Positions 6,131 through 47,693 are shown, numbered from the stretch's first letter. The stretch is DNA of 64,000 nt from Candidatus Woesebacteria bacterium GW2011_GWC1_42_9 (GCA_000995185.1 LCET01000001.1:103028-167027); one strand, 5' to 3'. Made by a program: numbers and translations. Notes: a model not told the origin generated them from the sequence alone.

Positions 6131-9100
6131 CAAATTTTTGAGAAGCTGGACTTCGATAGCAGGCTTAATTTTAGGTTCGACGCCGGTGATTTGGTTTTTG
6201 GGTAGGCCGGGTATTTTGATAAACGGATCCGATACCAATTTTCCGCTGGACCCTCTCAAATGGTTTATTCGGAGATTTTATGTTTGGCACTCAGTATCTA
6301 GTGCAGGCAGTGATTTTTCTTCTTCTCTGGCCGGAATATTTTTTCATTTAGTTCAAGTTGTTCCTTTCATCCTTGGCTTTAATTTACAAACAGTTCAAAT
6401 CATAAGCCTTGTTTTCTGGTTTATGCTAATTACATTTTGTTCATATCTTTTTGCCAATAGTCTCTTCCCAAGATCTAAATTAGCACAAATAGTATTTATT
6501 GTTTTTTATGCATTTAATATTTATCTTTTTAACACTTGGGAAAATGTTAAAGTGGCCAATTTGGCTTTGGTGGCGGCAATCCCATTTGGTGGCTGGATAT
6601 TAACAAGACTTAAAGATGGTTCATTGGGATTGGTTAATGCTTCTTTCTGGTCAATTGTTTTGGGAATAATGCTTTCTGGAAGTGGAATTAATCCGGCTTA
6701 TTTTTTGACATTTTTGATTATTATCTTCATTTTATTTGTCTCAGAGATTGTCTGTGGCATTAGTAGGAAGCGCCTTTTTGATTATTTTATAGTTGTATTT
6801 TTTGTCACTTTAGTCAATATGTTCTGGATCTTGCCAACTTTAAGGTACATTTTAGTTAGTGTTTCTGTTACACATAGTATTGATAGTATTAGTTACACTA
6901 ATTGGATTGATAGTCTTTCCCAAAACACAAGCCTATTTAATGTTTTTCGGCTTCAGGGAGCCTGGGATTGGTACGCCCAGGATTCAGCTACGGGTACGCC
7001 GTTGTATATCCCTTATTCAGTAAATTATTTTAGACGGTTGCCTTTTGTTTCTTTTAGCCTTTTGATTCCTTTTTTGGTTTTCTTATCTTTGTTAGTTAGA
7101 AGTAAAAGGAGGACTAACGGTCATTTTTATCTTGGTTTTGCCATTATGGTCGTCCTTGGCGTTTTTCTGGGAACTGGTACTCATTTACCAACTGGTTTGG
7201 TATTTCGCTTCTTTTCAGAAAGGCTACCGTTTTTTTCTCTCTTTAGAAGTCCTTGGTATATTTTTACACCTCTTTTGATTTTTTCTTATGCCGGATTATT
7301 AGGATTACTAATTTCCACTATACAAAAAAGAACTGCAATTGTTTTTTCTATGACGGTTATTTTGGTTGTTGGTAACTTCTTTTATAATTATCCTCTCGTA
7401 ACCGGTAAAATCTTTCGACCAGCCATGAAAGATAATTTTTTAGTGAAGTTCCCAGAGTACGTTTGGGAGACTAAGGATTGGCTGGATACTGAAGATCAGA
7501 TTAAAGGAAGAATAATCGGTTATCCCGATGATGAAATAGAAAGATTTAAGTGGGGATATGGCGCTGTTGACTCGCTCTTGAATCTTTTTTCAGACAGGGA
7601 GATTCTTTTTCCTTCTTTAAATGCGCCGGATTCAAATCTTTCACTCGTTCTTAAGGAATTTTATATTAGTCTTAAAAAACAGAAATTAACTTCGGCGCAG
7701 AATATTGCCCGAATTTTGAACGTAGGCATGATTTTTGACAAGAGAGACCAAATATCTCTTGCCCCACTTCTCCCAGAGAAGATAACCGGATCACCAGTAG
7801 CGAGGCTTGGTGAGTGGTCATTTTATCAGTTTCCGCAAAAAGATCGATATCTTTCTAAGATATATGCGTCGCAGTTGTTATTTCTTGGGTATCCGACTGA
7901 CAGAGAGGCTGTTTTAAGTCTGGGAAGCTTTGATGGGGAGAGTATTCTTGTTAATTCAAAAGATAGTGAGGTTATAAAAATTTCTGACCTCGAGAGAATA
8001 TCTGGAAGGATAGTATCGTCGATTAACTCGCAAGAGAAAATTTTTCGCGATTTTCAAGAGAAAGAACACACACTTTTTGATCGTTTTACACATCAAGATT
8101 TATCAAGGGTAAATTTTAGTTTTGAAGTCCCAAATGATGGGGTATATCAACCTGTAATAGAGAATTATCGTTTGGGAGATTTTGGTCTTGATTTTGATGA
8201 GGAGTTTAAGATCCAAATTAATGGGCAAGAGCAAACTTGGCAACCGGTCCGATCGACTGATTCGTTGATTTATTTTGCCGGCGTTGAACTTGCCCAAGGT
8301 AAATATGAAGTCGCCATCGAGTTGGAAAATAAAGATTTAGTGAACGAAGATTTTGAAGGAGAAATGAAATTCGAGAGGGAAGGTTCAGAAAGTCAGTTTG
8401 TGATTAGAAATGAAGACACTCGAAGATTTTTGGAGATCGTGAGCTCAAAGGACGCTGATACCTCGGCTGGATTTGTAATTTCGTCTTTTGATCCCTTGAT
8501 CCCATATTATCTTTCGGTTGATTACAAAAAGATTTATGGGGAAAATGCTGCGATTATTGCTGTTCAAGGGCGCGGTCATACCTTAGTCAAAAGTCAGCTT
8601 GAAAGAATGCCTTTATATTCGGGATGGAAGACTTATGGATTTTTTTATGATCCGGTTAAAACAGAGTCTCAAATGAAGGTTTTACTTGTTGCTTCGCGCA
8701 TAGAAGATGTTTTCGGAACTACGGTTTATTATGACAACCTTTCTGTTTACCGAGTTTTCACTAATCGGTTGTTTTTAGTTAATGAGAAAAATACAATTTT
8801 GTCGGCTCCGCAAGTCTATCTCGAAGATCAGTCCCCAGTCTCTTATAAGGGTACAGTTAAAGGAGTTATGGGGCCGCATATTTTAGTTTTCTCGGAGAAC
8901 TATTCTCCTGCATGGGAAATAAAAATCATAAACAGTAACGGCAGAAAAATAGATGTTCGGCCTCTGCATTTTAGCGCGAATTTGTACGCCAACGCATGGT
9001 ATTTAGAAAACCTTCCTGATGAATATTATTTTGAGATATATTATAAACCTCAGAGGTTATTTAAATTGGGGTTCATTATTCTCGTATCGAGTCTGACTAT

Positions 9101-35852: not shown

Positions 35853-37823
35853 ATGAATGACATGCCTCAAATTAATTTTGAAGAGTCCCTAGTCCAAATT
35901 AAGCCGGATGAGAAACCTATAAAAAGATTTAGGTTTTGGAAGTTCCATCGCCCTGGAAAAAGGATTTTGATCGGTTTATCGCTTGCCTTTGTCGTTTTAT
36001 TTGTTCTTATCCTATTTCCCGCTCTTCGGGTTTATCGAAGCGGCATGGTCTTGGCAGAGAGCGCCAGGCGTGCAAAAGACTCCGTGAACAGCCAGGATAT
36101 CACGGTTGTAAGAGGCGAGCTTAATAATTTTAAGGGTGATTTGGAGAGTTTTCAGGGCGCCTACAGATGGTTTGGCTGGGTGCAATACATCCCCTGGGCG
36201 GGGAGATACTGGAAAGACGGTAATGCAGGGATAAAGGCAGGACTTCATGGATTAGCCGCGGCAGATAAAGTGATTGAAACACTGTCCCCGTATGCGGATA
36301 TTATCGGCTTTGCCGGACCAGAGAGCGATACTGCTCAAAGCGGGGAAGATACCGCAAATGACCGGATTGAGTTTTTGGTACAGTCGGTTGAGCAAATAAC
36401 TCCTCAGATTGATGGAATTTCCGCCGAAGCCCAAGCCGCCGTCGCAGAATTATCTAAAATCGATCCAAACCGGTACCCAAAGGAATTTAGGGGAATTCCC
36501 GTCCGCGAAAAACTAAAAAACGGGATAAACCTGGCGATAGTTGGCGCCGGCTTTGTTTCAAAGTCAAAACCTTTGATGGAGGCCGCCCCATATATGCTTG
36601 GGATGGACGAAGAGCGCACGTATTTGGTTCTTTTCCAAAATGACAAAGAGCTAAGACCGACTGGCGGATTTATCACCGCCTACTCGATCATGACAGTAAA
36701 AAATGGGAAAGTAAGCCAGGTGAATTCGAGCGATATATATCATTTGGATAATGCCTACCGGCCAGTCGTTCCTGCTCCGGACCCGATCATTAATTACATC
36801 AAGGGAGTTTATGCGGCTTTGGATAAGTTTCGCTTAAGAGACATGAATTGGTCGCCTGATTTCCGAGAAAGCATGGACCTGTTTATGAACGAGGCCGAGA
36901 AGGCCGGGATTGAGGATATCGATGGTGTGATCGCGGTTGATACTCATGTTGTAGTTAATCTTCTTAAGGCGATCGGGCAGATTGGTGTGCCAGGATTTGG
37001 CAATTTTAGCGCTGAAAATGATGAGCGCTGTAATTGCCCGCAGGTAGTTTATGAGCTGGAAAGCTTTGCAGACGTGGAGGGGCCGGTTGTTTGGAGTGAA
37101 AATGAGCCGGAGAAGATCGTCTTTGCTCCCCCAAATTATGATAATCGCAAAAAAATTGTCGGTCCTTTGATGAATTCACTTTTGGGAAATGCCTTGGGAC
37201 AACCAAAGGAAAAGCTACCGGATCTTTTTGAAGCCGCGTGGGATTCGATCAATGAAAAGCATGTCCTGATTTACATGTTTGATGAAAATGCCCAAAAGGG
37301 AGTGGAGAGCTTTGAAATCGCCGGTAGAATTAAAGATATTGAGGGCGACTATCTACATATAAATGATGCTAATTTAGGGGGCAGGAAGTCAAACATGTAT
37401 GTCACCCAAGAAGTATCCCAGGACGTAGATATTGCCCGAGACGGCACAGTTACAAAAACACTAAGCATTACCTATAAAAACCCTCAGGACTACGATGGCT
37501 GGCTTAATTCGGTCCTCCCTAATTGGACGAGAATTTATGTGCCGAGAGGGAGTGAACTCGTTTCCGTTGACGGATTTGACGATGAAGGGGAGACCTATGA
37601 GGAGCTTGGCAAGACTGTCTTTTCCGGAGGATTTGAGCTTCGTCCTCAAGGCATAAAGCAGATAATCATTGTCTATAAATTGCCTTTTAAAGTAAGCGAT
37701 GATTACTGGGTTTACTTGCAAAAACAGCCCGGGACGGATATGCCGCTCTATGTCGTTAATGTTGGTGGGAAAACTGAAGAGCTATTTCTTAAAACTGACC
37801 AACACCTGAAGTTTTCGATCTAA
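35853..37823 (+). CDS. N-terminally TM-anchored large extracytoplasmic protein, probably DUF4012 family.
   Basis: A single N-terminal TM helix. LRPTGGFITAYS motif. Positioned next to the priming sugar transferase, as in other polysaccharide loci. Confidence 0.5.
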   Translation: MNDMPQINFEESLVQIKPDEKPIKRFRFWKFHRPGKRILIGLSLAFVVLFVLILFPALRVYRSGMVLAESARRAKDSVNSQDITVVRGELNNFKGDLESFQGAYRWFGWVQYIPWAGRYWKDGNAGIKAGLHGLAAADKVIETLSPYADIIGFAGPESDTAQSGEDTANDRIEFLVQSVEQITPQIDGISAEAQAAVAELSKIDPNRYPKEFRGIPVREKLKNGINLAIVGAGFVSKSKPLMEAAPYMLGMDEERTYLVLFQNDKELRPTGGFITAYSIMTVKNGKVSQVNSSDIYHLDNAYRPVVPAPDPIINYIKGVYAALDKFRLRDMNWSPDFRESMDLFMNEAEKAGIEDIDGVIAVDTHVVVNLLKAIGQIGVPGFGNFSAENDERCNCPQVVYELESFADVEGPVVWSENEPEKIVFAPPNYDNRKKIVGPLMNSLLGNALGQPKEKLPDLFEAAWDSINEKHVLIYMFDENAQKGVESFEIAGRIKDIEGDYLHINDANLGGRKSNMYVTQEVSQDVDIARDGTVTKTLSITYKNPQDYDGWLNSVLPNWTRIYVPRGSELVSVDGFDDEGETYEELGKTVFSGGFELRPQGIKQIIIVYKLPFKVSDDYWVYLQKQPGTDMPLYVVNVGGKTEELFLKTDQHLKFSI

Positions 37824-38620
37824 TGATCTGGGAGGAGATTTTTGCAAGCGGGGACACTTCCTACTCCGAGTCAGGTAAGACCCAAAATCAGCTTTTTGAG
37901 CTAGTTAAGCTTCGTTTCTTAATTACGATTTTTCCAAAAAAACATTCTCTAATTCTTGAGGTTGGCTGCGGCGCGGCCCGGACTTCGCTTTATTTTGCCA
38001 AAAGGGGACATGAGACTACTTTACTTGATCAAAGTGATGAAGTTTTAAAAATCGCCAAGGAAAATTATAAAAAAGAAAAAGCAAAAGGAAAATTTGTCGT
38101 CGGGGATGCTGAAAAATTACCGTTTGATAGTAACCAATTTGATGTTGTGATGAGCTTTGGATTGTTGGAGCATTTTAGGAAGCCTGAGATAGTGATCACT
38201 GAAATGGTAAGGGTGCTTAAACCCGGTGGATTGTTTTTTGCGGACATTGTCCCCAAACGATTTTCGGTGCAATCGATTGGCAATGTTATCAACTTTATTT
38301 TTTCAATAATTTACTGGACTATAAAATTAAAGCCACTTGTGGGAATTAAAAGAGGGATGCGGAATTTCAGGCCGCTTTATTATGAAAATGCCCTTTCCTG
38401 GATGAAATACAAAAAAATAATGGAGGAGGCAGGAGCAAAGGGCATAAAAGTACGCGGCAACCGTCCCTGGCCGAGACTTACTCTGCCGATGGCAGCAGAT
38501 AGACTTTATGCGGGAGTATTAAAGCCGACGATGCTTTTTTGGAGAAAATTTGACACATGGGATAATTTTTTCCCTCGCTTCTGGGGAGCCGGCTGGTGGT
38601 TCTGGGGAATAAAGCGATAA
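37823..38620 (+). CDS. Class I SAM-dependent methyltransferase (Methyltransf_11).
   Basis: ILEVGCGAARTSLYFAKRGHETTLLDQS...FDVVMSFGLLEHF. The start overlaps the upstream stop (TAATG). Confidence 0.75.
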   Translation: MIWEEIFASGDTSYSESGKTQNQLFELVKLRFLITIFPKKHSLILEVGCGAARTSLYFAKRGHETTLLDQSDEVLKIAKENYKKEKAKGKFVVGDAEKLPFDSNQFDVVMSFGLLEHFRKPEIVITEMVRVLKPGGLFFADIVPKRFSVQSIGNVINFIFSIIYWTIKLKPLVGIKRGMRNFRPLYYENALSWMKYKKIMEEAGAKGIKVRGNRPWPRLTLPMAADRLYAGVLKPTMLFWRKFDTWDNFFPRFWGAGWWFWGIKR

Positions 38621-38744: not shown

Positions 38745-39287
38745 GTGGGAAGGACATATGTTTCAGATGGGGTTGTGTTGGCTTCGCGTGATTACAGTGA
38801 GGCGGATAAAATATTGGTAGTTCTCTCGAAAGATTTTGGCAGAGTGTCGCTTATTGCCAAAGGCGTTAAAAAGCTCAAAAGCCGTAAGCGCGGGCACGTC
38901 GAAATCTTTAATCATATAAAGTTCCAAGCTGCTCGGGGGAAATCTTTGGATATTATTACCGAGGCAGAAATTATCAATGCTTTTTCAAGGGTCAGGAAAA
39001 ACTTAGTAAAGACTTCTGTCGCCTATTATTTTGCGGAGGTGATCGGGCGTACTACCCGCGACCACGAAAGAAATGAAGTGCTGTACGGACACCTATTAGA
39101 TAGCCTCACGAAGCTCCAAAAAAGCGAGAATTTGAAAGAATTAAGGCGTGATTTTGCGGTAAGGGCTTTGGAGATCCTAGGCTTCTGGCCAAAAAACAAA
39201 AAAATCGCCGATCCGGACAGATTTATCGAGGAAATCCTCGAGCGTGAGCTAGCGAGCATTAGAGTGGGCAAAAGGCTTCAAGGGTAG
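38745..39287 (+). CDS. recO: DNA repair protein RecO (short form).
   Basis: GTG start. N-terminal OB-fold region DGVVLASRDYSEADKILVVLSKDFGRVSLIAKGVKKLKS matches RecO_N. Confidence 0.65.
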   Translation: MGRTYVSDGVVLASRDYSEADKILVVLSKDFGRVSLIAKGVKKLKSRKRGHVEIFNHIKFQAARGKSLDIITEAEIINAFSRVRKNLVKTSVAYYFAEVIGRTTRDHERNEVLYGHLLDSLTKLQKSENLKELRRDFAVRALEILGFWPKNKKIADPDRFIEEILERELASIRVGKRLQG

Positions 39288-39311: not shown

Positions 39312-40409
39312 ATGAATACTAAATCTTTAAATACAAACTTACATAGAGCAAATAAAGCAAAGAAAGATGAGTTTTATACTCAGCTTATTGATATTGAAAA
39401 AGAACTGAAGCACTACAAAGACCAGTTTCGAGGCAAGGTGGTTTATTGCAATTGTGATGATCCATTTGAAAGTAATTTTTTCAAATATTTTGCCGCTAAT
39501 TTCAACGCCCTAAAACTTAAAAAGTTAATCACCACCAGTTATACAAAGTCGCCAGTTGCCGGAGGACAGTTGCCACTCTTTGAAGTCAAGGGCTTAAAAC
39601 CGAAAGGCAAAGAGCCGTTTATGATTGTACTCAATGAAGTGACAGATACCGATGCAGACGGCGCGGTGGGGCTTACTGATGTGAAGTGGCTCTTGAAAAA
39701 TGATGCCAATATCGCTACCTCACTCAAGGGTAACGGAGATTTTCGCAGCGAGGAGTGCATCAAACTTCTAAAAGAAGCAGATATTGTGGTAACCAACCCG
39801 CCATTTTCACTCTTTCGCGAATATGTGGCGCAGTTAGTCGAGTATAAGAAGAAATTTATAATTCTTGGCGACCAAAACGCAATTACATACAAAGAATTTT
39901 TTAAACTTATAAAAGAAAACAAGCTATGGCTTGGTTATGATAACGGTGGCACAAAATGGTTTCAAGTCCCAATGGATTACGATATACCAACAGAGTCAAG
40001 AAAGAAAATTGAGAATGGAGTGCAGTATTTTAGTATGGGGCGGATTATGTGGTTTACAAATTTAGACACCACAAAAAGACACGAGAAGCTGACTTTATAT
40101 AAAAAATATAGTCCGAAAGAATATCCAAAATATGACAATCATGATGCAATTGAAGTCTCTAGGGTTTTAGAAATTCCAATGGACTACAAGGGATTCATGG
40201 GTGTGCCAATTACATTTGTTGATAAATATAATCCTGATCAATTTGAGATCATTGGATTGCTTGCTGATAAGCGGGAAAAATCAGATGCACTTATACAAGG
40301 TATCCCTACTTATCTTGATGAACAGCATAAAAAATATGTAGGTGCTATTGTTAACGGAAAAGCAACTTATGCACGGATTATTATTAAAAATAAGAAAGTA
40401 AAAAAATAA
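39312..40409 (+). CDS. N6-adenine DNA methyltransferase, EcoRI-methylase-like family.
   Basis: KDEFYTQLIDIEKEL..Y...FRGKVVYCNCDDPFESNFFKYF and motif IV VVTNPPFSLFREY (the NPPF catalytic tetrapeptide). Confidence 0.65.
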   Translation: MNTKSLNTNLHRANKAKKDEFYTQLIDIEKELKHYKDQFRGKVVYCNCDDPFESNFFKYFAANFNALKLKKLITTSYTKSPVAGGQLPLFEVKGLKPKGKEPFMIVLNEVTDTDADGAVGLTDVKWLLKNDANIATSLKGNGDFRSEECIKLLKEADIVVTNPPFSLFREYVAQLVEYKKKFIILGDQNAITYKEFFKLIKENKLWLGYDNGGTKWFQVPMDYDIPTESRKKIENGVQYFSMGRIMWFTNLDTTKRHEKLTLYKKYSPKEYPKYDNHDAIEVSRVLEIPMDYKGFMGVPITFVDKYNPDQFEIIGLLADKREKSDALIQGIPTYLDEQHKKYVGAIVNGKATYARIIIKNKKVKK

Positions 40410-40410
40410 T

Positions 40411-41517
40411 ATGAAAATTGATCTAAACAAAATACCAATTCACGAAGTGATAGTCGGCTACAGAGATAGCGCCGAGGAGGGCGTGGTGGCTTATGGTGGC
40501 AAACTTGATATTCGTCCAAAATATCAGCGTGAGTTTGTATACAAGGAAAAGCAACGCAACGCAGTGATAGAGACTATAAATAACAATTTTCCTCTTAACG
40601 TGATGTACTGGATGATTAGAGAAGATGGCGGCTATGAAGTACTGGACGGCCAACAGCGCACCATCAGCATTGGGCAGTATGTTACGGGTGATTTTTCGCT
40701 GAACGACCGCTTTTTTCATAATCTGACCAAAGAGGAGCAGGATAAAATTTTGGATTATGAGCTTATGATTTACTTCTGCGAGGGAACGGACAAAGAACGG
40801 TTGGATTGGTTTAGAATTATCAACATCGCCGGAGAAAAATTGACCGATCAAGAAATACGCAACGCAGTTTATACCGGCCCGTGGCTTTCTGACGCGAAAA
40901 TCAAATTTAGTAAATCAAATTGTGCGGCGTATCTCTTGGCAAACGACGGCGGACAATTAGTTAGTGGTTCGCCAATTCGCCAAGAGTATTTGGAAACAGT
41001 ACTTTCGTGGATTAACGATGGCAAGATAGAAGATTATATGGCCAAACATCAGCATGATGAAAACGCCGATGAGCTATGGCAGTATTTTCAAGATGTGATA
41101 GTCTGGGTACGAATAATTTTTACGAATTATCGCCGAGAGATGAGCAATGTGCCGTGGGGAGTTTTGTATAACCAATTCAAAGATAAAAAATTTGATTCAA
41201 AAAAACTGGAAAAAGAAATAACCGAGTTGATGCAAGACGAAGATGTGACCAAAAAGTCCGGTATTTACGAATATGTTTTAACTAGAAATGAAAAATTTTT
41301 AAACATCCGCGCTTTCACCGACAAAATGAAACGAGAAGCGTATGAGAGACAAAAAGGCGTTTGTCCGCACTGCAAAGGCGAGAACAAGAAAAAGAAATGG
41401 GAAATTAAGGAAATGGAAGCCGACCACATCAAGCCATGGCATGAAGGCGGAAAAACGACAGTAGAGAATTGCCAGATGTTGTGCCAAGACGATAATAGAA
41501 AAAAATCAGGAAAATAA
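40411..41517 (+). CDS. DUF262 (ParB/Srx-like, GmrS-type) domain protein with a C-terminal HNH nuclease.
   Basis: VLDGQQRTISIGQY (the DGQQR motif of DUF262). C-terminus CPHCKG...ADHIKPWHEGGKTTVENCQMLCQDDNRKK (HNH with CxxC...C..C Zn ligands). A 1-nt gap to the upstream MTase suggests translational coupling. Confidence 0.7.
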   Translation: MKIDLNKIPIHEVIVGYRDSAEEGVVAYGGKLDIRPKYQREFVYKEKQRNAVIETINNNFPLNVMYWMIREDGGYEVLDGQQRTISIGQYVTGDFSLNDRFFHNLTKEEQDKILDYELMIYFCEGTDKERLDWFRIINIAGEKLTDQEIRNAVYTGPWLSDAKIKFSKSNCAAYLLANDGGQLVSGSPIRQEYLETVLSWINDGKIEDYMAKHQHDENADELWQYFQDVIVWVRIIFTNYRREMSNVPWGVLYNQFKDKKFDSKKLEKEITELMQDEDVTKKSGIYEYVLTRNEKFLNIRAFTDKMKREAYERQKGVCPHCKGENKKKKWEIKEMEADHIKPWHEGGKTTVENCQMLCQDDNRKKSGK

Positions 41518-41551
41518 AATGATAGGTGCGCCGGCTTCACTGGTATGAGAT

Positions 41552-43018
41552 TTGCTGAGAATAAATAGTATGAAAATTAGTCAAATCTACAAATTAAATA
41601 AAACTCAGCATGAATTAGATTTTGTTGACATAGATCCCTCAAAAGACAAAGCAGTTTTTCTTGACCCCTTCTTTATTTCTACTAGACCTCAACCGTGGTG
41701 TATAGATGTAAGTAGAACAATAAAAAGTTTTTTTCAACACGCGATTGACCTTATTAAATCAGATGAGGTTGATAAAGCTCGTGCTCTTTTTGTTCATTTA
41801 AACGAACCGAATGAAATATGTTTAGGTTTATCGAGATCCAAACCTCAAGGTAGGGGTGCCGGCAATGATGATTCAAGACGCATATATGAAAGTATTTTGG
41901 AGAGTAAGGCAGTTCAAACTGGGTTAGTAGAAGATTTGGAAGATACGGCTATTTTTATTGATCGGATAGCTAGAGATAAGGTATCTGATATGACAACTAA
42001 CATAATTAGGAAACATCTTGTTGGTTACACTAAATCACAGTGCGAATTGTGGAATATTCCTTTGACCAGCGATGTACCATCTGGATTTTTTTGGGATCCA
42101 GCAAATAAAAGATGGGAAATTGTGCACACCGACAGATTAGTCGTAAGAAACAAACCCTTATTGCTAGTTCCAAAAATATCAGTTTCTTTCCATAAAGAAT
42201 ATATTGATCAAAAATATTATCAGCACTTCGCCTTAAATTATTTACAGGGTGAGCATTTAGCAAAAGATAGCAGTTTGGTGCGTGAAAGAACATTAAAGGA
42301 TGGTTCAAAACATAGATATGTAACAAAAAAAGATATAAAAGAGAAGGAAGCTCCTTTTTCTAAAGAATTTTTGCGTGAGTTTACAAAAAGTCATCCTGAA
42401 GTTTTTAAAAATTTCAGAAGTAGTAAAGCTCAATCCGTTCAACCAATCGGAAATAAAGATCTGGAAGATATTGATGTTGGCGCTTTAGTCGATTACTTGA
42501 TTAACTTACTTAATTCCTTGACTGCGGGTGGGGACAACGCAAGCGCATATCATAAATTGATCATCGGAGTACTAGAATTTATTTTCTACCCATCATTAAA
42601 TAATCCAGTCAAAGAGAAAGAAATAAACGACGGCAGAAAGCGAATTGACATAACTTTCGACAATTCAGCAAATGATGGATTTTTTTACACTCTCCACAAT
42701 CTCCATCAAATTACTTCAAGATATATTTTTGTTGAGTGCAAAAATTATTCGGAAGATCCAAAAAATCCAGAAATTGATCAGTTGGCCGGTAGATTTTCGG
42801 TTAATACAAGTAAATTCGGCTTTTTGGTTTGCAGATTGATAAGTGATAAAAATTTATTTCTGAAAAGATGCCAAGATATGTGGAAACAGAAAAATGAGTT
42901 GATTATCCCGTTGACCGATCTGGAAATCATCGCTATTTTAAAAAATATAAAATCAGGAGTGATACGAACAGAAGAACAATTACTCAATGATTTAAGAAGG
43001 AAGATAATTTTGTCGTAG
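41552..43018 (+). CDS. Putative restriction endonuclease. It has a C-terminal Mrr-cat-like PD-(D/E)xK domain and a large uncharacterised N-terminal domain.
   Basis: C-terminal GRKRIDITFDN...(27 aa)...IFVECKNY matches the Mrr_cat pattern G.IDh...(E/Q)xKxY. Confidence 0.5.
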   Translation: MLRINSMKISQIYKLNKTQHELDFVDIDPSKDKAVFLDPFFISTRPQPWCIDVSRTIKSFFQHAIDLIKSDEVDKARALFVHLNEPNEICLGLSRSKPQGRGAGNDDSRRIYESILESKAVQTGLVEDLEDTAIFIDRIARDKVSDMTTNIIRKHLVGYTKSQCELWNIPLTSDVPSGFFWDPANKRWEIVHTDRLVVRNKPLLLVPKISVSFHKEYIDQKYYQHFALNYLQGEHLAKDSSLVRERTLKDGSKHRYVTKKDIKEKEAPFSKEFLREFTKSHPEVFKNFRSSKAQSVQPIGNKDLEDIDVGALVDYLINLLNSLTAGGDNASAYHKLIIGVLEFIFYPSLNNPVKEKEINDGRKRIDITFDNSANDGFFYTLHNLHQITSRYIFVECKNYSEDPKNPEIDQLAGRFSVNTSKFGFLVCRLISDKNLFLKRCQDMWKQKNELIIPLTDLEIIAILKNIKSGVIRTEEQLLNDLRRKIILS

Positions 43019-43175
43019 GCGGAGACGGAAAAGCGAGGACAGGACACAAGCATGGTACAAAATTCAGAATGAAGCAAAATTGTCTCCCCATATTTTATAA
43101 AAAAACTGCTGTTATATCATGAGACTTGACCCCTAAGAAATTTAGGATTATGTTTAGGATGAGATACATTTTAAG

Positions 43176-43718
43176 ATGCCTTTTTCTACAGAAATTATTG
43201 GTCTTTTGCAGTATTTAGGTGTTAGTGCGGATAAAATAGCCCCATTTTTAATTTTTGGTTTTCTTTTGAATCTCTCCTTCTCAAAGAGACTCGGAATATT
43301 TTCAAAAGAGATCAACAAAATTGCCAACGCAATAGTTGAAATTCAAACTGTTTTAAGAAACAATCTTAAAGTTACGCTGCAGCAAAATATCAATCAATAT
43401 GGAATATCTGGAAGTCCAATAGTTCTTAAGAGTGAATTTCGGTCATTTATTACTAAGCCAAAACTTGACCAGCAGGTAGATGAAAAAATTGACGAACTTA
43501 TAGAATGGTTGAAAAAGCAAAACCCAAAAACTGGAATTGATGCCCAAAATAAAATTTCAGAGCTGGTGATATCACCAAAGATCAACGAATATTTAGACCT
43601 CACAAAATACAAACAATACCTATATACAAAAGGTAAAACGTCAAGAGATGCTTATGGGATTTTGGCCGTCTACCTCTTCGAGATATTGATTCCTATATTG
43701 TTTCCCTCAGGCAAATAA
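43176..43718 (+). CDS. Hypothetical protein (180 aa).
   Basis: ORF only. Hydrophobic N-terminal and C-terminal segments. No motif recognised. Confidence 0.4.
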   Translation: MPFSTEIIGLLQYLGVSADKIAPFLIFGFLLNLSFSKRLGIFSKEINKIANAIVEIQTVLRNNLKVTLQQNINQYGISGSPIVLKSEFRSFITKPKLDQQVDEKIDELIEWLKKQNPKTGIDAQNKISELVISPKINEYLDLTKYKQYLYTKGKTSRDAYGILAVYLFEILIPILFPSGK

Positions 43719-43742
43719 CAAATAATATCAAACTGCTCAAAT

Positions 43743-43832
43743 TTGACCCGTTTTGACACATTAATTTAGGGTTGACAACATAATCATGTTGTCCATAGTA
43801 GTTAGCAAGCAGTCTATTTGAGTGCTTGCTAA
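43743..43832 (+). promoter_or_regulatory. Promoter/operator region. It has three TTGAC(A/C) boxes, a palindrome GACAACAT-aatc-ATGTTGTC overlapping the TTGACA/CATAAT elements, and a second perfect 10-bp inverted repeat TTAGCAAGCA-(11 nt)-TGCTTGCTAA ending 1 nt before the SD.
   Basis: Read directly: TTGACC 43743, TTGACA 43753, TTGACA 43772. First inverted repeat (IR) 43773-43792. Second IR 43802-43832. SD GGAGGTGA at 43834. Confidence 0.5.
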
Positions 43833-43847
43833 TTGGAGGTGATTAAA

Positions 43848-44102
43848 ATGGTAGATTTTAATAATTTAAAAATAGAGCCACATTTTAAGCTAAATTTTGG
43901 TAAGTCCGGGAAAAACGGAAATGGTGGAGATGGGGGATCAATATTTATTTTCACTGAAAAATTAGCAGGGGATGGGAAATTCCTTGCTCATGGAGGTAGG
44001 GGAAAACATGGAGGAAAAGGAGGGAATATAAAAATTATTGCAAAAAATAATGATTTCAAGGGCGAAGTTTCAGTAAAAGGAGGTGATTCCTATGGAAAGT
44101 AA
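43848..44102 (+). CDS. Small glycine/lysine-rich protein (84 aa).
   Basis: ATG 43848 with SD GGAGGTGA 6 nt upstream. The in-frame TTG at 43833 is the ORF-track start. Sequence GKSGKNGNGGDGGSIFIF...GGRGKHGGKGGNIKII...KGGDSYGK. Confidence 0.5.
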   Translation: MVDFNNLKIEPHFKLNFGKSGKNGNGGDGGSIFIFTEKLAGDGKFLAHGGRGKHGGKGGNIKIIAKNNDFKGEVSVKGGDSYGK

Positions 44103-44382
44103 GCAACATAAACAAATCGCAAACAAAATTGCCAAAATTAAGGGCTCCGAATACCATTCGGATAAAGGGATAGATATTCGTACCAGAACTCAAGCAATAG
44201 AAGTAGAGGTTGATTCAAAAGCCTTTGGACACGCAAAACAACAATTGGCTGGATCGACACGAGCACCTTATATTGCCGTGCCTAACGAACTCGTCAAAGA
44301 TGCTCTAGTGTCAACACAAAATACTAGATTTGGAGTTATGAATGAGAGAGCAAAAATTTATAAATCAGGTCGGCGAAGATAG
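44092..44382 (+). CDS. Small protein (96 aa), possibly a minimal PD-(D/E)xK (YraN-like) fold. It is translationally coupled to the upstream gene.
   Basis: ATG 44092 with an identical SD GGAGGTGA 8 nt upstream, lying inside the 3' end of the previous gene. KGIDIRTRTQAIEVEVDSKA resembles a D...ExDxK core. The ORF-track start is GTG 44083. Confidence 0.45.
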   Translation: MESKQHKQIANKIAKIKGSEYHSDKGIDIRTRTQAIEVEVDSKAFGHAKQQLAGSTRAPYIAVPNELVKDALVSTQNTRFGVMNERAKIYKSGRRR

Positions 44383-44403
44383 AAAATATATATAGATTTG
44401 GAT

Positions 44404-44434
44404 TTTGTGGCCCCGCAAAAAATCATTTTTTTTG
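44404..44434 (+). terminator. Probable intrinsic terminator after the two-gene module.
   Basis: TTTTGTG-gccc-CGCAAAA hairpin (one G.U pair), followed by a T8 run. Confidence 0.4.
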
Positions 44435-44458
44435 ACCAAACTAAAAGAAAGGATATGA

Positions 44459-45754
44459 TTGGGAGGAATGGTTAACTTTTTTGAAAAACAGTTTGATAAT
44501 TTAGCAAAAAAGATTCAACTGCGTTGGAAAAATCTTATTTTAGGGTTAAAATCTTATTTCAAAAAATTGATTTTTCCTCTGTATCTTTTCCCGATTAAGC
44601 TTGTTACTTATACCGCTTATTACTTGGTCAAGTTTTTAATCAAGTTTATTTTTGCTTTCATCAGCCTTATTTTTGAAACAATTATTTTTCCCTTCAAAAG
44701 TCTTAAAAACTTTTTAAAGTCAATTTTTATTCTTGGTATTTTTATATACCTTTTAGCCTCTGTTTTTGTAATTGCTGATTATTTAACAAACCAGTACGGC
44801 TATATCGGCAAATTCCTTTGTTCTTTTGGAGTGAGAGATAAAATGGTAAATTCTGTTGTTCGTGTCGTCGGCGGATATTCTGAAGGCACAGGGTTTTTCA
44901 TAAGCCCCGACCAAGTGATTACCAACTTCCATGTTATTGCTGATGAGCCAAGCCCTAAAATTATTTTTCCCGATGGAAACTTTGTAACTCCGGTAAAAAT
45001 TCTTGGCAATAAAGATGTTGACTTGGCAGTCTTGTTTACAGAAGCAAAGTATCCGGATCTGGTTTTGCCTTTGCCGGATAGCATAGGCTTTAAGGAGGAC
45101 GAACCTCTTATTGCTACCGGCTACGCTTTGGGAACTGACTTAACTGGTAAGGCAACGAGCCTTAGGGGAAGGTTTATTGATTTTAGGAAATCCAAGCGAA
45201 TGCCCATTGGCTACATCCAAACTGACATCAGTTTGGTCAAGGGCATGAGCGGCGGCCCGCTGGTCGATCAATGCGGGAGTGTAGTTGGGATAAATACCAT
45301 TAGTCTTGCCGGATTATCCTTGTTTATCAACGCAGACTGGGCAAAAACTATGGTGCCGGATTTTACCGACCAGAATATTACTAAAATCGAGGTTGACCCT
45401 TCTCTCTCTCCGGAGGAAGCCGTGAGAGCTTTTTATACCTATCTTAAAGCCCGCCGGATGGAAGACGGCTTTAACTTATTGAGCGAAGAATATCTTAAAA
45501 AGACAAACTTTGAGGAATGGACCAACCGCTTCACTGATATTTTGGATGTTGATGTTATCAAATCCGAGAAATTTGAAAATACCAACGATATTGCTTTTGT
45601 AAAATTCTCAACTAAAAATTGGGTGGACGGGGAAGCAGAAGTACATTTTTACGAGGGTACTTGGCAAACGGTCAAAGAAGACGGGGTGTACAAAATGTTC
45701 AAAAGCAAAATTGTGGAAGTTGAAAACCCAGATTGGGATTGGTTCTATGAATAA
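44459..45754 (+). CDS. Membrane-anchored trypsin-like serine protease (S1/Trypsin_2) with an uncharacterised C-terminal domain.
   Basis: 3-4 N-terminal TM helices. Catalytic triad contexts TNFHVIAD (His), DVDLAVLF (Asp) and KGMSGGPLVD (Ser). Confidence 0.7.
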   Translation: MGGMVNFFEKQFDNLAKKIQLRWKNLILGLKSYFKKLIFPLYLFPIKLVTYTAYYLVKFLIKFIFAFISLIFETIIFPFKSLKNFLKSIFILGIFIYLLASVFVIADYLTNQYGYIGKFLCSFGVRDKMVNSVVRVVGGYSEGTGFFISPDQVITNFHVIADEPSPKIIFPDGNFVTPVKILGNKDVDLAVLFTEAKYPDLVLPLPDSIGFKEDEPLIATGYALGTDLTGKATSLRGRFIDFRKSKRMPIGYIQTDISLVKGMSGGPLVDQCGSVVGINTISLAGLSLFINADWAKTMVPDFTDQNITKIEVDPSLSPEEAVRAFYTYLKARRMEDGFNLLSEEYLKKTNFEEWTNRFTDILDVDVIKSEKFENTNDIAFVKFSTKNWVDGEAEVHFYEGTWQTVKEDGVYKMFKSKIVEVENPDWDWFYE

Positions 45755-46397
45755 GCTCTCGCCATCAGACTTCGCCTACCTCTATGAGGAGTGTAAGCTT
45801 TGCTACTACCTCAAAGTCAAGCACAAGATTTCCCAGCCTAGCATGCCCATGCCTGGCGTCTTTAGTGCGATAAATACCCGCCTCCAAACTCCGCTTGTCG
45901 GCAAAAATTTGCAAGTCATATCCAAAAGACTCCCCGAGGGTGAGGTTATAAAGCAAGAAGGATGGGTAGAGTCTAAAACTGTCCCTGGGACAAATGTTTA
46001 CCTCAAGGGTAAGTATGATTTGTTAGTTAAAAACATGGACGAGACTTATACCCTGGTCGACTTAAAGATCACCCAGCCGGATGAAGGCAAGATTGAAAAG
46101 TACCAGACCCAATTGTCGGCTTATAAATTTGCCTTGGAAAATCCCAAAACTGGCAAGCCGACCCAGATCGTGAGGACCGGATTACTTCTTTTTTATCCCG
46201 ACACAGTGACTTTTAAAGCGGGGAATGCGATATTTAAATTCCCGCCGACTTGGATGGAAGTGCCGATCGACGAAAGAGTTTTCTTTGGGTTTATGAAGGA
46301 AGTTAACGAGCTTTTAAATGGACCCACTCCAAAAGAAAGCAAAACTTGCAAATGGTGCCAGTACCGGCACATTGGGGATAAGTTAGCTCACTCGTGA
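45747..46397 (+). CDS. Cas4/RecB-like PD-(D/E)xK nuclease with four Cys that could form an Fe-S cluster (standalone, no CRISPR nearby).
   Basis: N-terminal ECKLCYY. GKYDLLV (motif I Asp). LVDLKI (DxK). QTQLSAYKFAL (QxxxY). C-terminal TCKWCQY. The ORF-track start is 45711; the Met at 45747 overlaps the protease stop by 8 nt. Confidence 0.6.
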   Translation: MNKLSPSDFAYLYEECKLCYYLKVKHKISQPSMPMPGVFSAINTRLQTPLVGKNLQVISKRLPEGEVIKQEGWVESKTVPGTNVYLKGKYDLLVKNMDETYTLVDLKITQPDEGKIEKYQTQLSAYKFALENPKTGKPTQIVRTGLLLFYPDTVTFKAGNAIFKFPPTWMEVPIDERVFFGFMKEVNELLNGPTPKESKTCKWCQYRHIGDKLAHS

Positions 46398-46430: not shown

Positions 46431-47693
46431 TTGATGGAGAAAATTGTTTCTCTTGCCAAAAGACGGGGGTTTATTTATCCGGGGAGTGAGATCTATGGAG
46501 GGCTGACTGGCTTCTGGGACTATGGACCTCTTGGAGTGGAATTGAAAAACAATATCAAGCGCGAGTGGTGGAGGACAATGGTTTATGGGCGCGAAGACGT
46601 TGTCGGGCTTGACGCCGCAATTATCATGAATCCTAAGGTGTGGGAAGCAAGCGGCCACACCGAGGCCTTTACCGACCCTCTGGTTGAGTGTAAGACTTGC
46701 CATAAGCGCTTCCGTGCCGATAGGCACGAGATTATTGCCAAGCACGAAAAAAAGCACAAAAAAGCCCCCCAGTGGACTGAGCCCAGGACATTTAATCTAT
46801 TGACGGAAGTGTATTTAGGGACGACTGAGCCAAAGCAAAAAGCTTATCTTCGGGGTGAAATCACTCAGGGCGTATTTGTAAATTTCGGGAATGTCGTTAG
46901 CTCTAATCGGGTCAAGGTCCCCTTTGGGATTGCCCAAATAGGGAAGGCTTTCCGGAACGAAATTACCCCAGGGAACCTCACTTTTCGCTCGCGTGAATTT
47001 GAGCAGATGGAGCTTGAGTATTTTGTCGCGCCGGATGAAAAAGAAGCCCAGAAGACTTTTGATTATTGGAAAGAGGAAAGACTAAATTGGTATGTTGGTC
47101 TTGGGATGAATAAAGAGAAGCTGAGATTTAGAGCCCATGCAAAAAATGAGATGGCGCACTATGCGCGCGCGGCAGAGGACATTGAATATAAAGCTCCTTT
47201 TGGCTGGAGTGAGTTTGAAGGGATCCACCACCGGGGGGACTGGGACTTAAGCCGTCATAAGATTACTTATAAAGATGACTCGGGCAAAGAATTCACTCCT
47301 TGGGTGATAGAAACTTCTGGAGGAGTTGACCGGTCTACGTTGTTTTTCTTAATTGATGCTTATTGTGAGGAAGATGGAAGAGTTGTTTTAAAACTAAATA
47401 AGAAGCTTGCGCCTTTTAAAGCGGCCGTGTTTCCTCTTTTGGCCAATAAGCCGAAGCTATTGGAAGTGGCCAAAAAGATATTTACTGATCTGAAGAAGGA
47501 AATGCCGGTGGTGTGGGATGATCGCGGGAACATCGGGAAGCGCTACTTTGCCCAGGATGAGATCGGTACACCCGCATGCATTACAATTGATTTTCAAACT
47601 CTTGAAGACGATGCCGTGACGGTGCGGGACCGCGACACGGCAAAACAAGAAAGGGTTTCAGTTGACAAGCTCCAGGACTATCTGAAAGAATAA
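46431..47693 (+). CDS. glyQS: Glycine--tRNA ligase, alpha2 (GlyQS) type.
   Basis: N-terminal KRRGFIYPGSEIYGGLTGFWDYGPLGVELKNNIKREWW is the GlyRS class II signature. A C-terminal anticodon-binding region is also present. Confidence 0.85.
   Translation: MMEKIVSLAKRRGFIYPGSEIYGGLTGFWDYGPLGVELKNNIKREWWRTMVYGREDVVGLDAAIIMNPKVWEASGHTEAFTDPLVECKTCHKRFRADRHEIIAKHEKKHKKAPQWTEPRTFNLLTEVYLGTTEPKQKAYLRGEITQGVFVNFGNVVSSNRVKVPFGIAQIGKAFRNEITPGNLTFRSREFEQMELEYFVAPDEKEAQKTFDYWKEERLNWYVGLGMNKEKLRFRAHAKNEMAHYARAAEDIEYKAPFGWSEFEGIHHRGDWDLSRHKITYKDDSGKEFTPWVIETSGGVDRSTLFFLIDAYCEEDGRVVLKLNKKLAPFKAAVFPLLANKPKLLEVAKKIFTDLKKEMPVVWDDRGNIGKRYFAQDEIGTPACITIDFQTLEDDAVTVRDRDTAKQERVSVDKLQDYLKE

Follow-up and report, generated by a model that had tools for sequence, protein, structure and literature searches.

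CRISPR-Cas systems are rare in CPR bacteria and, to our knowledge, the phage resistance of these organisms is poorly known. Solo Cas4 genes are common and over-represented in CPR genomes (Hudaiberdiev et al. 2017, PMC5704561). Related Cas4-like nucleases of the PF12705 group, mostly UvrD fusions, are described as ancillary nucleases beside Type III restriction-modification (R-M) genes, UvrD and DUF1998 helicases (PMC5704561). Moreover, pairs of a nuclease and a protease have been reported for Hachiman (HamMAB), Avs, Lamassu and DRT systems as well as for caspase-nuclease 'canu' loci (Tuck et al. 2025, PMC12799240; PMC12642450). In these pairs, the nucleases are zymogens of the MBL fold, the proteases reside in the cytoplasm as fusions with sensor ATPases or helicases, and both partners co-evolve. 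In RsgI9 of Clostridium thermocellum, the S1C-NTF2 bi-domain is extracytoplasmic (PMC12203970). This anti-sigma factor has its N-terminal domain in the cytoplasm, and for its S1C domain a role as a protease-like binder of cellulose is described.

In this study, we analyse a stretch of 64,000 nucleotides from Candidatus Woesebacteria bacterium GW2011_GWC1_42_9 (GCA_000995185.1, LCET01000001.1:103028-167027; hereafter the window, with positions counted from its first nucleotide). Here the gene of a membrane-anchored serine protease overlaps by 8 nt the gene of a stand-alone Cas4-like nuclease. An earlier note on this DNA had proposed that both could form a membrane-triggered effector module, with anti-phage systems in mind. 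The reading we prefer, with a probability of about 0.55, is that two separately distributed families were brought into overlap by a local join at microhomology and constitute a non-obligate pair at the end of a defence island.

Protease and nuclease are the final two cargo genes of a defence island of 7.1 kb (39312-46397), all features of which lie on the plus strand. It is inserted between recO (38745-39287) and glyS (46431-47693). We regard this segment as an island because recO and glyS stand next to each other, with none of the island genes, in two relatives whose flanks are syntenic with those of the window (glycosyltransferases, DUF4012 and RecO on one side; GlyRS, a 244-aa ORF and MraZ on the other), whereas in the window they are parted by 7.1 kb of genes for R-M and defence. 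In one relative (L188) the spacing between recO and glyS is 13 nt, in the other (L189) they are parted by a single 89-aa minus-strand ORF only. In the loci fetched before these two, recO and glyS were not found. The island begins with a Type II R-M pair (39312-41517), consisting of an EcoRI-like adenine methyltransferase (39312-40409; Pfam EcoRI_methylase, E 2e-143) and a DUF262/GmrSD_N-HNH endonuclease (40411-41517; Pfam GmrSD_N plus HNH), which PADLOC recognizes as MTase_II and REase_II (E ~1e-132 to 1e-137). A PDC-M36A-like candidate defence gene follows (41552-43018; PADLOC PDLC04597, E 2.4e-37; PHROG 27295, E 6e-98), and then three small ORFs of 180, 89 and 99 aa (43176-44382), for which there was no match above the curated cut-offs of Pfam and NCBIfam and none in PADLOC. 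Homologues of these six genes were absent from all of the approximately 189 fetched loci. A promoter-like site, TTGACC-16-TATGAT (44432-44459), is located directly 5' of the protease start; it is a consensus match only, agreeing at 10 of 12 positions in a consensus scan. Sought as island boundaries, a tRNA gene was not present in the window, and flanking direct or inverted repeats of the island amounted to short matches at chance level.

Concerning the protease, an ORF is present on the plus strand from TTG 44459 to 45754, with the stop codon TAA at 45752-45754; the start at 44459 given in the earlier note has to be revised. ATG 44468 (MVNFFEKQ...) is preferred over TTG 44459, since it is the start shared by homologues and by the database copy P0121, a 100% identical protein of 428 aa. 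The gene (44468-45754) thus encodes a protein of 428 aa, which by Pfam Trypsin_2 and its AF2 model is a membrane-anchored S1C serine protease of the HtrA/DegS type with a C-terminal NTF2-like domain. Trypsin_2 (PF13365) matches aa 143-278 with an E-value of 7e-21, the Pfam envelope of this S1 core being 44885-45292. The catalytic triad is encoded by the codons of His (44930-44932), Asp (45020-45022) and the Ser of GMSGGP (45248-45250), and H155, D185 and S261 (428-aa numbering) are invariant across 24 protease homologues. The N-terminal region is hydrophobic; its first ~33 aa form a basic helix, to which a multi-helix membrane region is joined at residues ~34-106 (44567-44785), as delineated by hydropathy segments and the AF2 helices 43-73 and 79-110. 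This membrane region is strongly conserved, including K44, Y48, Y52 and a PF-SLKNFLK loop; AF2 confidence is low here (pLDDT 48-69) and moderate for the model as a whole (pLDDT 67). The C-terminal ~130 aa have no Pfam match. In the AF2 model, residues ~312-421 (45401-45730) fold into a pair of helices and then a curved sheet of four strands, an NTF2-like domain. The claim of a membrane-anchored S1 protease carrying an additional C-terminal domain is thereby borne out.

The best PDB match of the AF2 model is the S1C-NTF2 bi-domain of RsgI9 (7sjy, E 6e-13), followed by the periplasmic DegS and DegQ and by HtrA1. The window protease has the same two-domain architecture after a membrane anchor as RsgI9. 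It differs in its short basic helix and multi-helix membrane region, in its invariant triad and in a sequence identity of about 20%. Residues 1-140 match nothing in Pfam or NCBIfam, so no RsgI anti-sigma domain is seen. With DegS, HtrA and MarP it shares the Trypsin_2 core, the membrane anchor and a predicted extracytoplasmic catalytic domain, and target-normalised structural TM scores with the DegS protease domain are 0.7-0.78. Neither the C-terminal PDZ domain(s) of HtrA and DegS nor the 4-TM CvpA-like anchor of MarP is seen: the NTF2-like domain takes the place of PDZ, for which no match was obtained; the NCBIfam scores are far below the HtrA/DegS/MarP equivalog cut-offs (67 against 416, 41 against 408 and, for MarP, 52.7 against 250); and the gene is patchy, mobile and island-resident instead of belonging to the core genome. 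PADLOC matched the generic protease parts of its RT-Protease_XI and LmuA models only, and no fusion to a sensor (STAND ATPase, Hachiman helicase, Lamassu component or RT) is present on the protein. The topology was read from homologues and the positive-inside rule. Homologues of 36-42% identity possess a single signal anchor at the N-terminus, where the N-tail carries positive charge, and a conserved Cys ahead of the protease domain, and the window protease has a K-rich loop ahead of its last transmembrane segment. Together with the best structural matches, which agree, these features suggest that the catalytic domain is probably located outside the cell.

The second gene, NUC1, encodes a stand-alone PD-(D/E)xK nuclease of the Cas4/RecB superfamily with 216 aa (45747-46397, plus strand). 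Since homologues start with M(Y/H)KLSPSDF, ATG 45747 is favoured over a longer ORF starting with TTG 45711. The protein matches PDDEXK_1 (PF12705; E 5e-12, 46.6 bits, cut-off 22), and its fold resembles Cas4, AdnA, Dna2 and EXO5, i.e. it is of the Cas4/RecB type. Invariant positions across 28 homologues are D91 (46017-19), D105-x-K107 (46059-61 and 46065-67), Q122xxxY126 and four Cys. The four Cys are arranged as two CxxC motifs, one N-terminal (C16, 45792-94; C19, 45801-03) and one C-terminal (C201, 46347-49; C204, 46356-58), and a third C-terminal Cys is absent. The canonical Cas4 arrangement, known from SSO0001 and AddB, is C-x(n)-C-x2-C-x5-C with one N-terminal and three C-terminal Cys. 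Hence the QxxxY motif and the four Cys described earlier for the nuclease are confirmed, though in a 2+2 pattern and not in the canonical 1+3 pattern. Judged by its motif, this site could accommodate Zn equally well as an Fe-S cluster.

With 27.6 bits, the nuclease stays below the cut-off of 65 set for the Cas4 equivalog TIGR00372, the Cas4 models of PADLOC match weakly (E 4e-9 to 2e-3), and for both proteins the matches in PADLOC, NCBIfam and PHROGs were generic or sub-threshold. A sequence comparison of the nuclease with PDB chains returned a single match, eL40 (E 0.8), and nothing useful. As was expected from the earlier note, no cas genes are found among the ORFs annotated at 28.3-51.8 kb of the window, and none stands beside NUC1 in loci with annotated neighbours. 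Likewise, the nuclease is a single domain with no adjoining helicase gene in the window; it is no AddB/RecB-type fusion and belongs to the PF12705 Cas4-like group instead. NUC1 thus resembles solo Cas4 and pfam12705 proteins as a stand-alone, cas-free PD-(D/E)xK nuclease with QxxxY, a four-Cys site and PF12705 in a small CPR genome, often beside genes of Type III or Type I R-M systems, UvrD or DUF1998 helicases. It differs from solo Cas4 by its Cys pattern, its score below the Cas4 equivalog and an unusually uniform clade, which collapses to one cluster at 50% identity, with a gap before the next relatives. In addition, most NUC1 proteins end in an SSB-like acidic ...(D/E)IPF tail, which the window copy does not have. 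Tail loss was considered as a mark of protease-adjacent NUC1 and rejected, as those copies show no systematic lack of it. With the nuclease domains of AdnA/AdnB, AddB, Dna2, EXO5 and MGME1, which process DNA ends and are Fe-S or related RecB-like nucleases, NUC1 shares a putative metal cluster tying the N-terminal helix to the C-terminus, although it has only 216 aa and no fused helicase. By analogy with these enzymes NUC1 would be expected to thread single-stranded DNA ends.

Both genes are under strong purifying selection, with dN/dS ratios of 0.055-0.056 compared to 0.077 for glyS, and neither is a chance ORF.

The overlap of both genes claimed in the earlier note, from the nuclease ATG at 45747 to the end of the protease at 45754, is real; both ORFs are present and have the 8 nt ATGAATAA in common (45747-45754, plus strand), where the protease cassette joins the nuclease. 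In many loci the native 3' end of the protease gene reads ...TATGAATAA, and the native start of the nuclease gene in locus L183 reads ATGCATAAG. These native ends have ATG(A/C)ATAA in common, a microhomology of 8 nt. L183 is 92% identical to the window at the nucleotide level over 2.5 kb, the similarity starting exactly at the nuclease ATG (45747); the 22 nt known upstream of it are unrelated to the window. From the other side, similarity to the protease gene of locus L184 (84% at the nucleotide level) stops at 45753. Among the approximately 190 loci examined, an overlapping arrangement of protease followed by nuclease occurs in the window only. The sequences of the ends hence point to a local join at microhomology and not to the mark of a fixed two-gene system. 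The overlap does imply co-translation of both genes in the window, which counts against a merely incidental join. An integron cassette or a homing endonuclease, considered on account of the precise gene-sized boundaries, was dropped, as attC-like and repeat signals were not found. L183 had also suggested that NUC1 is part of the chromosomal backbone; this was rejected, since L188 and L189 have recO-glyS without NUC1.

The relatives of both genes are mostly found apart. NUC1 relatives with 95, 82, 82 and 74% identity have no adjoining protease gene, and L184 encodes a protease 88% identical to that of the window with no nuclease. A protease stands beside NUC1 in two of 80 NUC1 loci, the other 78 (97%) being free of it. 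Viewed from the protease, the picture is different: in 16 of 80 species-level protease loci a Cas4-like nuclease gene lies immediately upstream, and in eight more within 10 kb. The order in the 16 loci is nuclease then protease, the reverse of that in the window; the genes are co-directional, gaps are mostly ≤6 nt, the nucleases belong to two sister subfamilies, and the proteases of paired loci diverge down to 39% identity (L083). Placing the 24 nuclease genes at random at ~20 genes per locus would yield about one adjacency, compared to 16 observed. Adjacency of the two families is strongly non-random but facultative. It argues for some functional link, which the view of an incidental join leaves unexplained. 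At the same time, about 70% of protease loci lack such a nuclease within 10 kb. A comparison of pairwise identities by Mantel permutation gave a protease-nuclease co-phylogeny of r 0.26, a value inflated by duplicate loci, and a Spearman correlation that was not significant; a stably co-inherited module was rejected on these grounds. The co-occurrence asked about in the earlier note thus exists elsewhere, in a minority of loci. Its suggestion of a defence pair is supported by the island setting and by the family adjacency above chance, and weakened by the lack of conservation of the window pair itself.

A refined form of the proposal in the earlier note is a genuine two-gene defence module. 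In such a module, the external S1C-NTF2 protease would sense phage attack or envelope damage and signal via its membrane domain to the cytoplasmic Cas4-like nuclease, which then degrades DNA; nuclease-then-protease would be the canonical order and the window a rearranged copy. We consider this possible, though doubtful. The tight co-directional arrangement in 16 of 80 loci, spread over two nuclease subfamilies and deeply divergent proteases, speaks for it, as does the defence-island setting. The transmembrane region, with its charged residues and unusual degree of conservation, goes beyond what an anchor needs, and there are precedents both for membrane sensors with nuclease effectors and for nuclease-protease pairs (PMC12799240, PMC12642450). 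Against this stand the nuclease-free majority of protease loci, the protease-free majority of NUC1 loci, the weak co-phylogeny and the fact that the window pair is not kept in the closest relatives. Furthermore, the single-TM protease of L083, which does have a nuclease upstream, has a cytoplasmic tail of <20 aa, leaving little to bind or regulate a partner. The same evidence may be extended to a previously undescribed facultative module across CPR, with a 2+2-Cys Cas4-like nuclease followed by a TM-S1C-NTF2 protease, in which an external sensor is coupled through the membrane domain to a DNA-end nuclease. It would be the transmembrane counterpart of the cytoplasmic pairs of MBL pro-nuclease and trypsin-like protease, with a rearranged copy in the window. 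This extension is tentative, and we hold it to be rather unlikely.

A direct activation as in the MBL nucleases of Hachiman, Avs and canu, i.e. a pro-nuclease matured by its trypsin-like protease, appears extremely unlikely here. As in those systems (PMC12799240), the 16 CPR loci have a separate nuclease gene followed by that of a trypsin-like protease, and they likewise lie beside unrelated defence systems; the window has the opposite order. The nuclease also contains a loop at residues 30-50 (QPSMPMPGVFSAINTRLQ) which is invariant and modelled by AF2 with low confidence, and which could in principle act as a gate. However, the protease is probably external and the nuclease has no signal peptide, therefore direct activation of a cytoplasmic nuclease is unlikely. 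In addition, the nuclease has a PD-(D/E)xK and not an MBL fold, the protease is membrane-anchored and unfused to any cytoplasmic sensor, most NUC1-clade nucleases have no partner, and co-evolution is weak in comparison with the congruence reported for MBL-protease pairs (PMC12642450). For the membrane-triggered effector proposed earlier, in which the protease acts directly on the nuclease, a mechanism is hence wanting, with the two domains likely on opposite sides of the membrane.

The distribution of the protease bears on whether the two are ordinary housekeeping neighbours, an HtrA-like protease for envelope quality control and an exonuclease for DNA repair. The protease was recovered in at least 88 of 185,579 species representatives, a pattern-limited lower bound, and some MAGs carry two divergent copies (e.g. 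L013 with L075, L022 with L043). Copies from Roizmanbacteria and Gottesmanbacteria are 89% identical to that of the window and those from WWE3 84%, compared to 79% for the best GlyRS outside the conspecific strain; a cross-class identity above that of GlyRS indicates horizontal transfer. Genes upstream of the protease include RhuM, GmrSD-HEPN, Schlafen/AlbA_2, HD, SprT-like, Type I and Type III R-M, UvrD and DUF1998, and downstream no gene is conserved across loci. The upstream neighbours of NUC1 comprise ResIII in 9 of 48 non-redundant neighbourhoods scanned, as well as Eco57I/N6_Mtase, HsdR and HsdS, and in some loci genes of the sister subfamily 'nuc2' follow a separate UvrD gene. Protease genes of 69% identity occur on three 'viral' contigs, and jumbo-phage contigs carry distant NUC1 relatives only (27-33% identity); this evidence is insufficient to assign a phage origin to either gene.

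A housekeeping role would fit the conservation of both proteins across CPR, which at ~70-75% identity matches that of GlyRS, and the low dN/dS of both genes. It would also fit the occasional position of NUC1 beside dcw-cluster genes (ftsA-ftsZ up to two genes upstream in 5 of 48; NUC1 ahead of murD in L004) and the (D/E)IPF tail, which suggests a link of most NUC1 proteins to the replication or repair machinery. We nevertheless regard it as very unlikely. The syntenic recO-glyS site of relatives has neither gene, the protease is sparse and sometimes duplicated, its cross-class identity speaks for transfer, and the neighbours of both families are overwhelmingly R-M, defence or mobile genes.

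We return to two separately distributed families which meet at the end of this island. The conserved multi-helix anchor would hold the protease, a catalytically active S1C enzyme of the HtrA/DegS type, at the external face of the membrane, where it would act on envelope proteins or on incoming extracellular proteins. Its gene appears to move horizontally among CPR lineages and usually closes clusters of defence or mobile genes at their 3' end. In the nuclease, the four-Cys metal site, two N-terminal and two C-terminal, would staple both termini together, and the most likely activity of the enzyme is to thread free DNA ends and degrade them. Fold and gene neighbourhoods suggest an ancillary exonuclease which may finish foreign DNA cut by the neighbouring restriction systems. 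As the membrane probably separates the two catalytic domains, the protease would not process the nuclease, and any cooperation would be indirect, as two co-transcribed layers of one island.

The recO-glyS hot spot of a Woesebacteria genome thus holds a mosaic defence island. Its analysis defines two highly conserved, island-resident CPR families, a solo Cas4-like nuclease with atypical Cys and often an SSB-like tail, and a mobile membrane S1C-NTF2 protease. If the nuclease-then-protease link is not functional, the locus illustrates that two genes may come to overlap through a microhomology join and yet form no functional couple. If the link is functional, it would extend the theme of nuclease-protease immunity to a transmembrane format and a different nuclease fold.

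The protease ORF runs on the + strand from TTG 44459 to TAA 45752-45754 and the nuclease ORF, on the same strand, from ATG 45747 to 46397; the two share 8 nt, as the earlier note had read them. ATG 44468 is the preferred protease start, since homologues and an identical database entry (P0121, 428 aa, Candidatus Woesebacteria bacterium GW2011_GWB1_43_14) begin there, and ATG 45747 is confirmed over a longer ORF from TTG 45711 by the N-termini M(Y/H)KLSPSDF of the nuclease homologues. Strong purifying selection acts on both, with a dN/dS of 0.055-0.056 against close relatives (glyS, 0.077). The -10 element of a promoter-like site (44432-44459) ends at 44459, only 8 nt before ATG 44468. Transcripts from this putative promoter would have little or no leader ahead of the protease start, and GGAGG at 44462-44466 would then be irrelevant.

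The overlap itself is a junction. A contig with a close relative of the nuclease (L183) aligns at 92% nucleotide identity, starting precisely at 45747 and extending past glyS, and its 22 nt upstream of the alignment start are unrelated, A-rich sequence. The protease gene of L184, 84% identical, stops matching at 45753, and unrelated reverse-strand genes follow it. The native 3' end of many protease genes reads ...TGGTT(T/C)TATGAATAA, the nuclease start in L183 reads ATGCATAAG and the window junction reads TATGAATAAGCT. Similarity breakpoints and matching native ends thus reveal directly that the two genes were joined at an 8-nt microhomology, which also explains the Asn at position 2 that is unique to the window nuclease. 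No protease adjoins the nuclease in relatives of 82, 82 and 74% identity. L184 also carries, at 7427-8845 and about 6 kb from its protease gene (product 88% identical), a reverse transcriptase (RVT_1) and a bAvd-like gene, a combination that marks diversity-generating retroelements.

The locus is a defence island preceded by recO and followed by glyS-mraZ-rsmH. Two relatives have the same flanking synteny, L188 and L189 (GlyRS 79% and 77% identical); recO and glyS are separated by 13 nt in the former and by a small reverse ORF alone in the latter. This proximity marks 39312-46397 as a 7.1-kb insertion, and both protease and nuclease are part of its cargo. Upstream of the pair are an EcoRI-like methyltransferase, a DUF262-HNH endonuclease, a PDC-M36A-like gene and three small ORFs. 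The 488-aa protein at 41552-43018 matches the PADLOC candidate component PDC-M36A (E 2e-37) and PHROG 27295 (E 6e-98). It is followed by a 180-aa ORF without a family (43176-43718) and by a glycine-rich 89-aa ORF (43833-44102) with repeated GGxG(K/D)GG motifs (GKSGKNGNGGDGGS...GGRGKHGGKGGN), which shares 20 nt with the next ORF and matches no family above threshold. Between DUF4012 and recO lies a class I SAM methyltransferase of 265 aa (37823-38620); as it is missing from the otherwise syntenic L188, it represents another small insertion, close to the island. NUC1, the clade of the window nuclease, repeatedly borders the cell-division (dcw) cluster, lying downstream of ftsA-ftsZ or ahead of murD or glyS-mraZ (L098, L099, L101, L106, L117; L004/L005; the window), which suggests that dcw borders are preferred island sites in the candidate phyla radiation (CPR).

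The nuclease matches PDDEXK_1 (PF12705, E 5e-12), and D91, D105-x-K107, Q122xxxY126 and four Cys are invariant among 28 homologues, bearing out its description as a QxxxY/four-Cys PD-(D/E)xK nuclease. Cas4 and AddB typically have a 1+3 Cys arrangement, whereas that of the window nuclease is 2+2, with CxxC (C16, C19) on the N-terminal and CxxC (C201, C204) on the C-terminal side; this putative metal site is compatible with both Fe-S and Zn and does not discriminate between them. The score of 27.6 bits lies below the Cas4 equivalog cut-off of 65 bits. Cas4 SSO0001 is the top Foldseek match of the confident AF2 model (pLDDT 86), and the protein thus belongs to the RecB/Cas4 superfamily of end-processing nucleases, as a stand-alone enzyme and not as Cas4 proper.

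NUC1 is strikingly uniform. Its CPR homologues number hundreds, 65-82% identical, and clustering of a sequence library at 50% identity leaves one representative of the entire clade (435 bits), the next full-length relatives reaching only about 150-220 bits. NUC1 and GlyRS have similar identity profiles (95, 82, 74 and about 70% against 95, 79, 77 and about 74%); the clade is as conserved as glycyl-tRNA synthetase despite variable, island-like contexts. Housekeeping functions for protease and nuclease would suit such conservation and sit badly with such contexts, and we consider them improbable. Roughly two thirds to three quarters of the clade carry an acidic ...(D/E)(I/L)PF C-terminal tail, PF being the final residues in 88 of the 120 top proteins. 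This tail resembles the C-terminal tip of bacterial SSB, which recruits repair and replication proteins. The window nuclease and its closest relatives end in ...KLAHS (46380-46397), without the SSB-like tail. Full-length relatives of 27-33% identity are encoded on large viral contigs of IMG/VR (L172-L179, 39-479 kb, jumbo-phage-sized), and it is only such distant relatives that occur on jumbo-phage contigs.

The protease combines a hydrophobic N-terminal region with a Trypsin_2 core (PF13365, E 7e-21), in which H155, D185 and S261 (GMSGGP) are invariant among homologues, and about 130 C-terminal residues without a match in the Pfam search; the trypsin-like protease with an unknown C-terminal domain had been recognised correctly. 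Much of the membrane region and C-terminal domain is likewise invariant, and mean column identity is 78% across homologues from Woese-, Roizman-, Gottesman-, Shapiro- and Woyke-bacteria and WWE3. The closest structure to the AF2 model (pLDDT 67) is the S1C-NTF2 bi-domain of Clostridium thermocellum RsgI9 (7sjy, E 6e-13), an anti-sigma factor whose extracellular sensor it forms (PMC12203970), and this predicted-structure match suggests the same bi-domain for the window protease. DegS, DegQ and HtrA1 rank next, but the protease has no PDZ domain and scores far below the cut-offs of the NCBIfam HtrA, DegS and MarP models. In homologues of 36-42% identity one signal anchor with a basic tail forms the N-terminus, and a conserved Cys stands between it and the protease; the window protein has a K-rich loop (KSLKNFLKS) before its last membrane helix. 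From these features and the likeness to RsgI9, taken together, we infer that the catalytic domain is placed outside the cell. Homologues of 524-625 aa (L046, L048, L051, L054, L058, L061, L085, L154) apparently have a longer N-terminal region and more predicted membrane helices, which start-codon choice may partly explain. Counterparts of the protease from other CPR classes reach 84-89% identity, above the best GlyRS outside the conspecific strain (79%), which points to horizontal transfer.

Protease matches (at least 88 among 185,579 species, the search pattern limiting the count) came mostly from Microgenomates-type CPR, some MAGs having two copies. A Gottesmanbacteria MAG (L013, L075) and a Microgenomates Gr01-1014_5 MAG (L022, L043) each encode two divergent proteases on different contigs, 89% and 53%, and 81% and 64%, identical to that of the window. 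Many TPA records titled 'uncultured Gammaproteobacteria' or 'Pseudomonadales' (L015, L018-L020, L023 and others) carry a CPR-type protease; these titles are probably placeholders or mis-assigned rather than real non-CPR occurrences.

Of 80 protease loci from GTDB species representatives, 16 have a Cas4-like nuclease gene directly upstream of the protease gene, of NUC1 type in 4 and in 12 of the sister subfamily nuc2 (about 250 aa, with the same CxxC...CxxC, D...DxK and QxxxY motifs). About one such case is expected if the 24 nuclease genes were scattered over some 20 genes per locus. Gaps are mostly <=6 nt, and 8 further loci have a nuclease within 10 kb. The other upstream neighbours form 30 unrelated clusters (41/78 tightly co-directional), and no conserved downstream neighbour was found in the 80 loci. 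Conversely, only two of 80 metagenomic NUC1 loci contain the protease, both in the order nuclease-then-protease; the reverse order occurs, among the loci surveyed, in the window only. For proteases and nucleases that are neighbours, the pairwise identities correlate poorly (Mantel r 0.26, Spearman 0.04, duplicate loci included), and co-evolution is weak. The association is thus real, facultative and often re-assorted. The pair had been proposed as a possible membrane-triggered anti-phage effector module, an idea that is partly supported; recurrent adjacency in CPR upholds the association behind it, but the pair as arranged in the window is no conserved system. That the two proteins form a true sensor-effector module across the membrane, favoured by that adjacency and disfavoured by the weak co-evolution, is accordingly a doubtful reading.

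Upstream of the protease or of nuclease-protease pairs we found Type I and Type III R-M, UvrD, SMC/AAA_21 ATPases, GmrSD-HEPN, RhuM, Schlafen/AlbA_2, HD, SprT-like, DUF1998 helicase and FtsK. The two gene positions upstream of NUC1 gave a non-redundant set of 48 proteins, among them ResIII (9), Eco57I/N6_Mtase (5-6), FtsZ (5), HsdR (3) and HsdS (3). Hudaiberdiev et al. (PMC5704561) described solo Cas4 genes as over-represented in CPR. For Cas4-like nucleases of pfam12705, chiefly UvrD fusions, they found an association with Type III R-M, UvrD and DUF1998 helicases and proposed an ancillary defence role. NUC1 and nuc2 contexts fit that picture; no protease is mentioned in the paper. In Hachiman, Avs and 'canu' systems a trypsin-like protease was shown to activate, by cleavage, an MBL-fold pro-nuclease whose gene lies upstream of its own (Tuck et al., PMC12799240; preprint PMC12642450). 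The CPR loci have gene order and recurrent acquisition in common with these pairs, but their nuclease has a different fold, their protease is without the fused cytoplasmic sensor and is likely external, and co-evolution is weak; activation of the window nuclease by the protease is therefore very improbable.

We favour, at a probability of roughly 0.55, a DNA-end nuclease accessory to R-M and a surface protease, overlapped by a microhomology join in a mosaic island. Judged from fold and neighbourhoods, the nuclease would most likely degrade free DNA ends, e.g. restriction fragments or incoming linear DNA, as an accessory to neighbouring R-M systems; topology and homology suggest that the protease most likely acts on cell-surface proteins. 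Modestly novel and testable are the repeated occurrence in CPR of a nuclease gene just before the protease gene, the solo Cas4-like clade with its atypical 2+2-Cys site and SSB-like tail, and the mobile membrane protease of S1C-NTF2 type.
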